Part shown: piece by piece, positions 8,620 to 10,405 of the stretch
How the letters are laid out: each line of letters begins with the position of its first letter
Numbering within the stretch: the first letter of the stretch is position 1
DNA from: Escherichia coli
GTDB taxonomy: Bacteria; Pseudomonadota; Gammaproteobacteria; Enterobacterales; Enterobacteriaceae
Strand: one strand, 5' to 3'
DNA length: 64,000 nucleotides
NCBI RefSeq assembly: GCF_003334815.1
Contig: NZ_QOWO01000008.1
The notes under the pieces: generated by a model
Database searches by the model: none
Told to the model about the DNA's origin: nothing
Seen by the model: only the letters and a program-made list of their open reading frames with translations
Made by a program: the position numbers and the translations under genes

Positions 8620-9609
8620 TTACTTACCGCCTAAACCTTTTTTCTCCAGTTCTTCTTTAAAGTTGTCACGCGTGATCAGTACCACGTCGGTAACTTCGGT
8701 AAATTTTGGCGGTTCAACGTCTTTTGCTACCCAGTTGTAAAGCATTTCGCTGGATTTATAGCCATGTACGTCCGGGCTTGGCAGCAGGGAACCGTAGAAG
8801 CCGGTTGCCTGTGCTTTAGACAGTTCGCTCACCGCATCCACACCGTTAATGCCAATGCCGATGATATCGGCCGCTTTAAAGCCCTGACCTTCCGTCGCGC
8901 GTACGCCGCCCAGCACGGTGCTGTCGTTCATACCGACGATCAGCCAATGTTTAACTTCCGGATGTTGAACCAGCATTGAGTTGGCAGCGTCAAATGCCCC
9001 CGGGATGTCGTTAGATTTGGTAGGTACCTGATAAATTTGTTTTTCCGGGAATCCGGCCGCTTTCAGCGCATCCATAGATCCCGTAGTACGGCGGCGGGCG
9101 GTATCCAGTTCGTTGGCGGTAATCGCCATCACCGCGCTTTCTTTGACATCCCAGCCACGTTTCTGCATCTCTTTATACAGTTCCTGGCCCTGACGTTCGC
9201 CAATTTTAGTCGCCGCCATCATCACCAGCGGAACGGTATCCATTGGCTTACCTTTGGCGTTAACAAACTGGTCATCCACGGCAATGACTTTCATATCGTA
9301 GCCACGCGCTTTCGCGACGATGGCAGAGCCGAGTTTGGGGTCCGGAGTACAAATAACGAAACCTTTTGCGCCACTGGCAGCCAGGCTGTCGATCGCGTTC
9401 AATGTTTTTTCGCCATCCGGCACGGCAATCTTAATAACCTCAAACCCTAAATCCTTCCCGGCTTTATCGGCAAACTTCCATTCGGTCTGGAACCACGGCT
9501 CTTCCGGTTGCTTCACCAGAAAACCGAGCTTCAGGTTCTCCGCCATAGCGGATTGTGACATAACGGCTGCCAGACCAATGGCTGCCAGGGCTTTAGTAAA
9601 TTTGTGCAT
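8620..9609 (-). CDS. araF: Periplasmic L-arabinose-binding protein
   Basis: Track ORF 346 aa; recalled AraF (329 aa) begins MHKFTKALAAIGLAAVMSQSAMA (signal peptide) at ATG 9609. Confidence 0.95.
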   Translation of the reverse strand: MHKFTKALAAIGLAAVMSQSAMAENLKLGFLVKQPEEPWFQTEWKFADKAGKDLGFEVIKIAVPDGEKTLNAIDSLAASGAKGFVICTPDPKLGSAIVAKARGYDMKVIAVDDQFVNAKGKPMDTVPLVMMAATKIGERQGQELYKEMQKRGWDVKESAVMAITANELDTARRRTTGSMDALKAAGFPEKQIYQVPTKSNDIPGAFDAANSMLVQHPEVKHWLIVGMNDSTVLGGVRATEGQGFKAADIIGIGINGVDAVSELSKAQATGFYGSLLPSPDVHGYKSSEMLYNWVAKDVEPPKFTEVTDVVLITRDNFKEELEKKGLGGK

Positions 9610-9860
9610 GGTTCTCTCCAGCTTTAGTGTCGTTTTGTGTAGGGCAAAAACGAATGACATTCGTTAAATTAATCGGAAAACAAAGCATTACCTTTTAACT
9701 AAAAGATAAGTGACTGTGTTGACATAGTTTTAGCGAGAAATTAATTCTCCATAGGAGAGCAATATCACATCGCAGAATTACAGTGAGAACGTGCATAAAT
9801 TTAGCGGGAAAAGACATAAGGGAAAGCCAATTTGTCAGACAAATTGTCGAATGCACAGCA

Positions 9861-9880
9861 GATTAATCCATAAGATTAGC
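9861..9880 (+). promoter_or_regulatory. Candidate AraC binding half-site upstream of araFGH
   Basis: ATTAATCCATAAGATTAGCC closely resembles the araBAD araI1 element (TATCCATAAGATTAGC); about 250 bp upstream of araF in inverted orientation. Confidence 0.5.
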
Positions 9881-10405
9881 CTGGAAATCCTTGTTGTCTT
9901 TGGTACCCATGCGGGATGTCTTCTTTTTAACCAGTCAATAGGCCGCATTACCTGGCGTTGAGTTTTTGAAATGGTGTAATAACCGCAACTCAAAGATGTG
10001 GAAAATGCACGTCATTCATTTCGTCATTAATTATCACTGTGCTCATTAATTAACAGAACACGTATAATGAGAGCCATCTCGCAAAAATGAAAAAACGTTT
10101 TATAAAATCATCACTTCATCATGAATTCAAATTCATTGATTAATATCAACAAGATACAAAAAGCACTATCATTAAAATTCATTGCAGTTACATTGATTTC
10201 ATCAATGAAATGTAAAAATATATAAACTTGATGATTTAAGCATTTTCTTATACCCGTTCAGACGTTATTCTTATTTCAGATCATCGTCAGAATTGACTCC
10301 ACGATCACATTTCGGACCGGCAGAAAGGAATTATTCTGCAAACAGTAATTATGGTGTTTTGATTTATCTTGCACCTCTCCACTTCTGGATATAAGGATAT
10401 TAGGT

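Follow-up and report, generated by a model that had tools for sequence, protein, structure and literature searches.

In the arabinose system of Escherichia coli, the regulator AraC acts through operators of several designs, of which araO2 is a single half-site that loops over approximately 210 bp to araI1. The site analyzed here lies in the control region of araFGH. Hendrickson et al. 1990, Hendrickson, Flaherty & Molz 1992 and Lu et al. 1992 are said to have distinguished two AraC sites in this region, araFG1 close to the promoter and araFG2 farther upstream. In these same studies, CRP was reportedly located between araFG1 and RNA polymerase, and the promoter is said to have only a weak -10 element and to require no -35 element. 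The deletion of araFG1 reportedly abolishes arabinose control, and the deletion of araFG2 is said to have a slight effect. No looping was reportedly found in the original characterization, and the 1992 study is said to have compared the core promoter of araFGH with galP1.

Published work depicts the regulatory region of araFGH as containing two sites for AraC, one for CRP, the -10 and -35 elements and a start site, and an araF reporter was found to be silent in an araC mutant. According to a paper citing Johnson & Schleif 2000, the araFGH promoter is bound by AraC, which aids the recruitment of RNA polymerase. The araF gene has been described as having both sigma-70 and sigma-S promoters and as being repressed by a small RNA. 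In Maciag et al. 2011, araF is reported to have a second promoter that depends on sigma-S, and such a promoter could alter the relation of the distal AraC site to a start site. The sequence of the distal site gave no match in the texts of the papers that we searched.

The analyzed DNA is a 64-kb stretch (the window), in which the region of interest corresponds to araH-araG-araF / ftnB of E. coli, with araG and araH located downstream of araF according to the alignment to an annotated genome. The flagged bases fall within the araF-ftnB spacer, which is 796 bp long. The 1-kb stretch around them has a match with at least 95% identity in 5,419 of the 5,426 complete E. coli genomes. Two loci among the species representatives that are also labelled Escherichia coli (L003 and L004) share only approximately 75-79% identity with the window over the 350 nt upstream of araF, against 95% identity or more over 1 kb in each of the 5,419 complete E. 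coli genomes that match. Both loci probably come from cryptic Escherichia lineages. The half of the spacer that is near ftnB (10050-10300) is strongly AT-rich (23-29% G+C) and contains short direct and inverted repeats, for example TCATTAATTATCA / TCATTAATTAACA. Fur boxes upstream of ftnB were considered and rejected, the best match being merely 11/19. The features discussed below are collected in Table 1.

Table 1. Positions in the window of the regulatory features and genes around the araF-ftnB spacer.
Feature	Position	Strand	Description
Distal operator, half-site A (araI1-like)	9856-9872	+	CAGCAGATTAATCCATA; 1 mismatch to TAGC-N7-TCCATA
Distal operator, half-site B (araI2-like, weaker)	9877-9893	+	TAGCCTGGAAATCCTTG; 2 mismatches
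Near-palindrome	9829-9847 (core 9830-9844, centre 9837)	none	CAATTTGTC-A-GACAAATTG; conserved in most of 80 araF upstream regions
Proximal tandem AraC operator, presumed araFG1	9781-9818	+	half-sites 9781-9797 (CAGTGAGAACGTGCATA) and 9802-9818 (TAGCGGGAAAAGACATA); 5/20 mismatches
CRP-like site	9769-9754 (centre 9761.5)	minus	TGTGATATTGCTCTCC; top CRP-like score in the spacer
Weak -10 candidate	9734-9727	minus	GC-TAAAAC; sole -10 candidate, no recognisable -35
Predicted araF 5' untranslated region	9610-9720	minus	approximately 111 nt; conserved blocks
araF coding sequence	8620-9609	minus	encodes the substrate-binding protein of the arabinose ABC transporter; placed by aligning the window with annotated E. 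coli genomes
ftnB start	10406	plus	from alignment to an annotated genome

Anatomy of the distal AraC operator

The flagged 20-mer, ATTAATCCATAAGATTAGCC, occurs once in the window, on the plus strand at 9862-9881. The earlier note had the right sequence, but its coordinates, 9861-9880, were one base too far to the left. The 20-mer includes TCCATA (the 3' box of half-site A), AGAT (the 4-bp linker) and TAGC (the 5' box of half-site B). Thus it is not a half-site, as had been proposed, but spans the junction of the two 17-bp half-sites of a full two-half-site operator. The claimed near identity to araI of araBAD holds, with 17 of the 20 positions identical and 15 of them in an unbroken run (ATCCATAAGATTAGC), although the part of araI that it resembles is the half-site junction rather than the core of araI1. 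Two further claims agree with the sequence. The site was placed about 250 bp upstream of the araF ATG, and the 20-mer lies 253-272 nt upstream of it; the site was said to point away from araF, and the araI-like reading is on the plus strand, with araF on the minus strand. The araI reference used in these comparisons was checked in real genomes, where a 74-nt stretch with TAGCATTTTTATCCATAAGATTAGCGGATCCTACCTGA, oriented toward araB, occupies part of the araC-araB spacer; 28 nt separate its end from the start of araB.

The distal operator as a whole (9856-9893, 38 bp) is a direct repeat of two half-sites in a 21-bp register, separated by a 4-bp linker, which is the geometry of araI1-araI2. For its evaluation we used the half-site consensus TAGC-N7-TCCATA, which was checked against araI1 as it occurs between araC and araB. 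With three mismatches in the 20 specified positions, the distal operator is the sole tandem site with no more than four mismatches in 64 kb. Among 60 first-order Markov random sequences, none contained a tandem site with three or fewer mismatches, and the mean count at up to four mismatches was 0.07. Lone half-site matches with up to two mismatches showed no enrichment in the window (36 found versus 43 expected), so that the tandem test alone is informative. At position 9856, where half-site A of the distal operator begins, the window carries a C (CAGC); the consensus T (TAGC) is present in most other Escherichia and Citrobacter representatives, and A is found in Enterobacter. No other position of this box is less constrained; its conservation is 0.56.

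Conservation of the two operators across the Enterobacteriaceae

We compared 80 araF loci, one per species, from Escherichia, Citrobacter, Enterobacter, Klebsiella, Leclercia, Buttiauxella, Cedecea, Mangrovibacter, Pantoea and other genera. A tandem AraC-type site was found in 72 of these loci, and its distance from the ATG is identical or almost identical among them: -282 to -285 in most loci and approximately -260 in the Buttiauxella- and Cedecea-type loci, which have a shorter leader. In every case where a site was detected it was inverted, and a forward orientation was observed in none of the 80 loci. At the position of half-site A, many of the other genera match the consensus boxes without a mismatch (TAGC...TCCATA).

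The alignment of the 80 sequences demonstrates that conservation follows the boxes, as would be anticipated for DNA that a protein contacts. In half-site A, the boxes have a mean conservation of 0.92 versus 0.72 for the spacer, and in half-site B the respective values are 0.89 and 0.55; the boxes of the proximal operator are conserved at 0.93. Overall, box columns range from 0.89 to 0.93, the 7-nt spacers from 0.55 to 0.78 and the 4-nt linker from 0.41 to 0.68, while the DNA farther upstream is at 0.53. Conservation drops to background exactly where the distal site ends, from 9894 onward. The spacing between the elements is also constrained. The distal and the proximal operator are 75 bp apart in 68 of the 80 loci and 74 bp apart in the remaining 12, and the proximal operator is located 35 bp from the centre of the CRP-like site in all 80. 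Thus the upstream site, supposedly the minor one, is at least as conserved as the essential proximal site, and its spacing to that site is fixed.

At 9856-9893 we find the half-site boxes, the 21-bp direct repeat, a location in the control region of an AraC-dependent operon and box-specific constraint, all of them features expected of an AraC operator. Judged by its sequence and that of its orthologs, this element is a genuine, evolutionarily conserved AraC operator upstream of araFGH, already known and ordinary, which we take to be araFG2, the upstream AraC site of this operon. The tandem anatomy, the inverted orientation and the cross-genus conservation also support the suggestion of the earlier note that the site fits the AraC-site architecture of the araFGH promoter. 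What has been achieved here is the re-identification of a classical regulatory element from sequence alone, with little new biology. It is nevertheless useful as a positive control for such sequence reading, since the orientation, the distance and the family given in the earlier note are all borne out.

The araFGH promoter, its leader and the midway near-palindrome

Between the distal operator and araF, the control region contains a second tandem AraC operator, which presumably is araFG1, the proximal AraC site reportedly essential for arabinose induction. It shares the inverted orientation of the distal operator and matches the consensus less well (five versus three mismatches). Next toward araF is the CRP-like site, the TGTGA half of which is practically invariant across genera, followed by the weak -10 candidate; a GCTAAAAC block at the -10 region is conserved across genera as well. 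Since a promoter scan of the araF-ftnB spacer found no consensus sigma-70 promoter, the transcription start was placed from the CRP geometry alone: class II positioning of CRP (-41.5) would put the start of araFGH near 9720-9722. When numbered from this predicted start, the CRP-like site is centred at -41.5, the proximal operator at approximately -79.5 and the distal operator at approximately -154.5; the distal operator would extend from approximately -136 to -173, and the 20-mer from -142 to -161.

Several additional sequence patterns were observed in the core promoter. At 9731-9758, a TAGC box and a TCCATA box, both perfect, have 13 nt between them versus the usual 7, and this arrangement is almost invariant across genera. 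Within the same segment, the inverted repeat TCTCC-ATA-GGAGA at 9746-9758 is also almost invariant across genera. In addition, an 18-nt direct repeat (9723-9740 / 9794-9811, 83%) ties the core promoter to the proximal AraC operator.

The leader of araF contains the conserved element UGCCCUAC (9646-9639, minus strand), the complement of the first eight nucleotides (1-8) of Spot 42 RNA, with a duplex energy of -13.5 kcal/mol. The full-length duplex of Spot 42 with the araF leader was no better than those of shuffled sequences (47 of 200 were as good), and only the 8-bp seed with the 5' end is notable. In E. coli strain J3 (locus L083, 365-1132), the leader is interrupted by a 768-bp IS1 located 46-54 nt upstream of the ATG. 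The insertion has a 9-bp target duplication (window 9655-9663) and cuts araF off from its AraC/CRP-dependent promoter. The same split match with an annotated IS1 transposase was observed in two further genomes.

A near-palindrome is located between the two AraC operators, and its centre (9837) is the exact midpoint of the operator centres at 9799.5 and 9874.5. The positions of its core are conserved at 0.70-0.96, with the exception of the centre base (0.42) and one other position (0.56), while its flanks are at approximately 0.45-0.55. It is missing in three Citrobacter loci, and several genera have an asymmetric variant. We found no further copies of the palindrome in the window beyond weak matches at chance level. 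A CRP-like or a Fur-like site was rejected as its identity by comparison with CRP and Fur sites; its pattern, T-GT-N3-AC-A, is reminiscent of operators of the GntR/FadR type. To our knowledge, no factor has been assigned to a palindrome between the two AraC operators. The changes in this element across genera are asymmetric between its halves, and because they are not symmetric, binding by a dimer is unproven. If the palindrome does bind a regulator, it would constitute an undescribed input to araFGH.

Role of the distal operator and comparison with known systems

Taking these observations together, the flagged bases very probably are the centre of the distal operator araFG2, an auxiliary AraC site upstream of the proximal AraC and CRP activation region. 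By analogy with araI1-araI2, one arabinose-bound AraC dimer would occupy both distal half-sites. Since the operator is at approximately -154 and inverted, direct contact with RNA polymerase of the kind made by araI2 is ruled out. Activation would be exerted mainly by the proximal operator (9781-9818) together with CRP at approximately -41.5, on a promoter whose -10 element is weak and which lacks a -35 element. We infer an auxiliary role for the distal operator, which most likely serves as a high-affinity AraC landing site that modestly tunes occupancy or output. The two operators are predicted to be on the same helical face, 75 bp or approximately seven turns apart. If the effect of deleting the distal site is truly slight, however, its strong conservation across genera is not fully explained by an auxiliary role.

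One way to account for this conservation, which we consider unlikely, is that the distal operator forms one arm of a phased module composed of an AraC operator, 11 bp, the 15-bp near-palindrome core (9830-9844), 11 bp and the second AraC operator. A dimeric factor that binds the palindrome would then join two AraC dimers in a higher-order complex, and high-affinity arabinose uptake would thereby receive a second physiological input. Such a three-part module, if true, would explain both the conserved distal site and the exact 75-bp spacing despite the reportedly slight effect of the deletion on plasmid reporters.

The same spacing could also reflect a repression or anti-activation loop, an explanation to which we give somewhat less credence still. 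Without arabinose, one AraC dimer would bridge a distal and a proximal half-site, as in the case of araO2-araI1, and keep araFGH off until arabinose releases it. In favour of such a loop, the two AraC operators share one helical face and keep a strictly conserved distance of 75 bp, and the conserved element midway between them could be the site of a bending protein. However, both operators are complete tandem pairs and not isolated half-sites like araO2, the distance of 75 bp is very short for a loop, and the original characterization reportedly found no looping and little change when the upstream site was deleted.

The outward orientation suggests a further alternative, in which an unannotated, divergent promoter on the plus strand, directed toward ftnB, uses the element as its activator site in the manner of araI. 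Relative to plus-strand transcription the site is indeed oriented as araI is, and its pointing away from araF would thereby be explained; yet the remaining evidence makes this very improbable. There is no promoter-like site downstream on the plus strand, and conservation is at background beyond the I2-like half-site (9894 onward), exactly where -35 and -10 elements would be needed. In addition, the proximal operator, oriented in the same way, is directed at the distal operator rather than at a gene, the ftnB start is more than 500 bp away from the flagged AraC site, and the araF-ftnB spacer contains no credible Rfam RNA. Finally, a functionless chance resemblance to araI, for which one could cite only that single half-site matches with up to two mismatches are as frequent as expected in the window, has a negligible probability: no second tandem arrangement of this quality exists in the window, the random sequences contain none, and the explanation is effectively refuted by the conservation pattern, in which boxes, spacing, orientation and position are retained in 72 of the 80 loci from many genera while the spacers drift.

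An auxiliary AraC operator thus remains the preferred reading, and it can be placed among known arrangements as follows. The araFGH promoter resembles the co-dependent promoters that combine class II CRP with an upstream activator of the AraC family, in having a CRP-like site at approximately -41.5 (as numbered from the predicted start), a weak -10, no -35 and the activator site upstream of CRP; unlike them, it has an extra distal operator and a central palindrome. The distal site shares with araO2 and araO1 of araC-araBAD the property of being upstream AraC-binding DNA that does not touch RNA polymerase. It differs from araO2, an isolated single half-site engaged in looping, in being a complete two-half-site operator 75 bp from its partner, and hence does not belong to the araO2 type of looping operator. 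It is similar to the presumed araFG1 (9781-9818) in belonging to the same promoter and in its inverted orientation, tandem geometry and cross-genus conservation; in contrast to the distal site, araFG1 has five rather than three mismatches and is fixed at 35 bp from the CRP centre.

The site can also be compared with araI of araBAD. A site of the araI type that contacts RNA polymerase faces its promoter, with the I2 half-site abutting the -35 region, whereas the araF distal site is inverted, is located at approximately -154 and is separated from RNA polymerase by an AraC operator and a CRP site, which places it outside that type. Nevertheless, both operators consist of two 17-bp TAGC-N7-TCCATA half-sites arranged as a direct repeat with a 4-bp linker, the first half-site strong and the second weak, and they share 15 consecutive identical bases across the junction and 24 of 38 positions over the full 38-bp sites.
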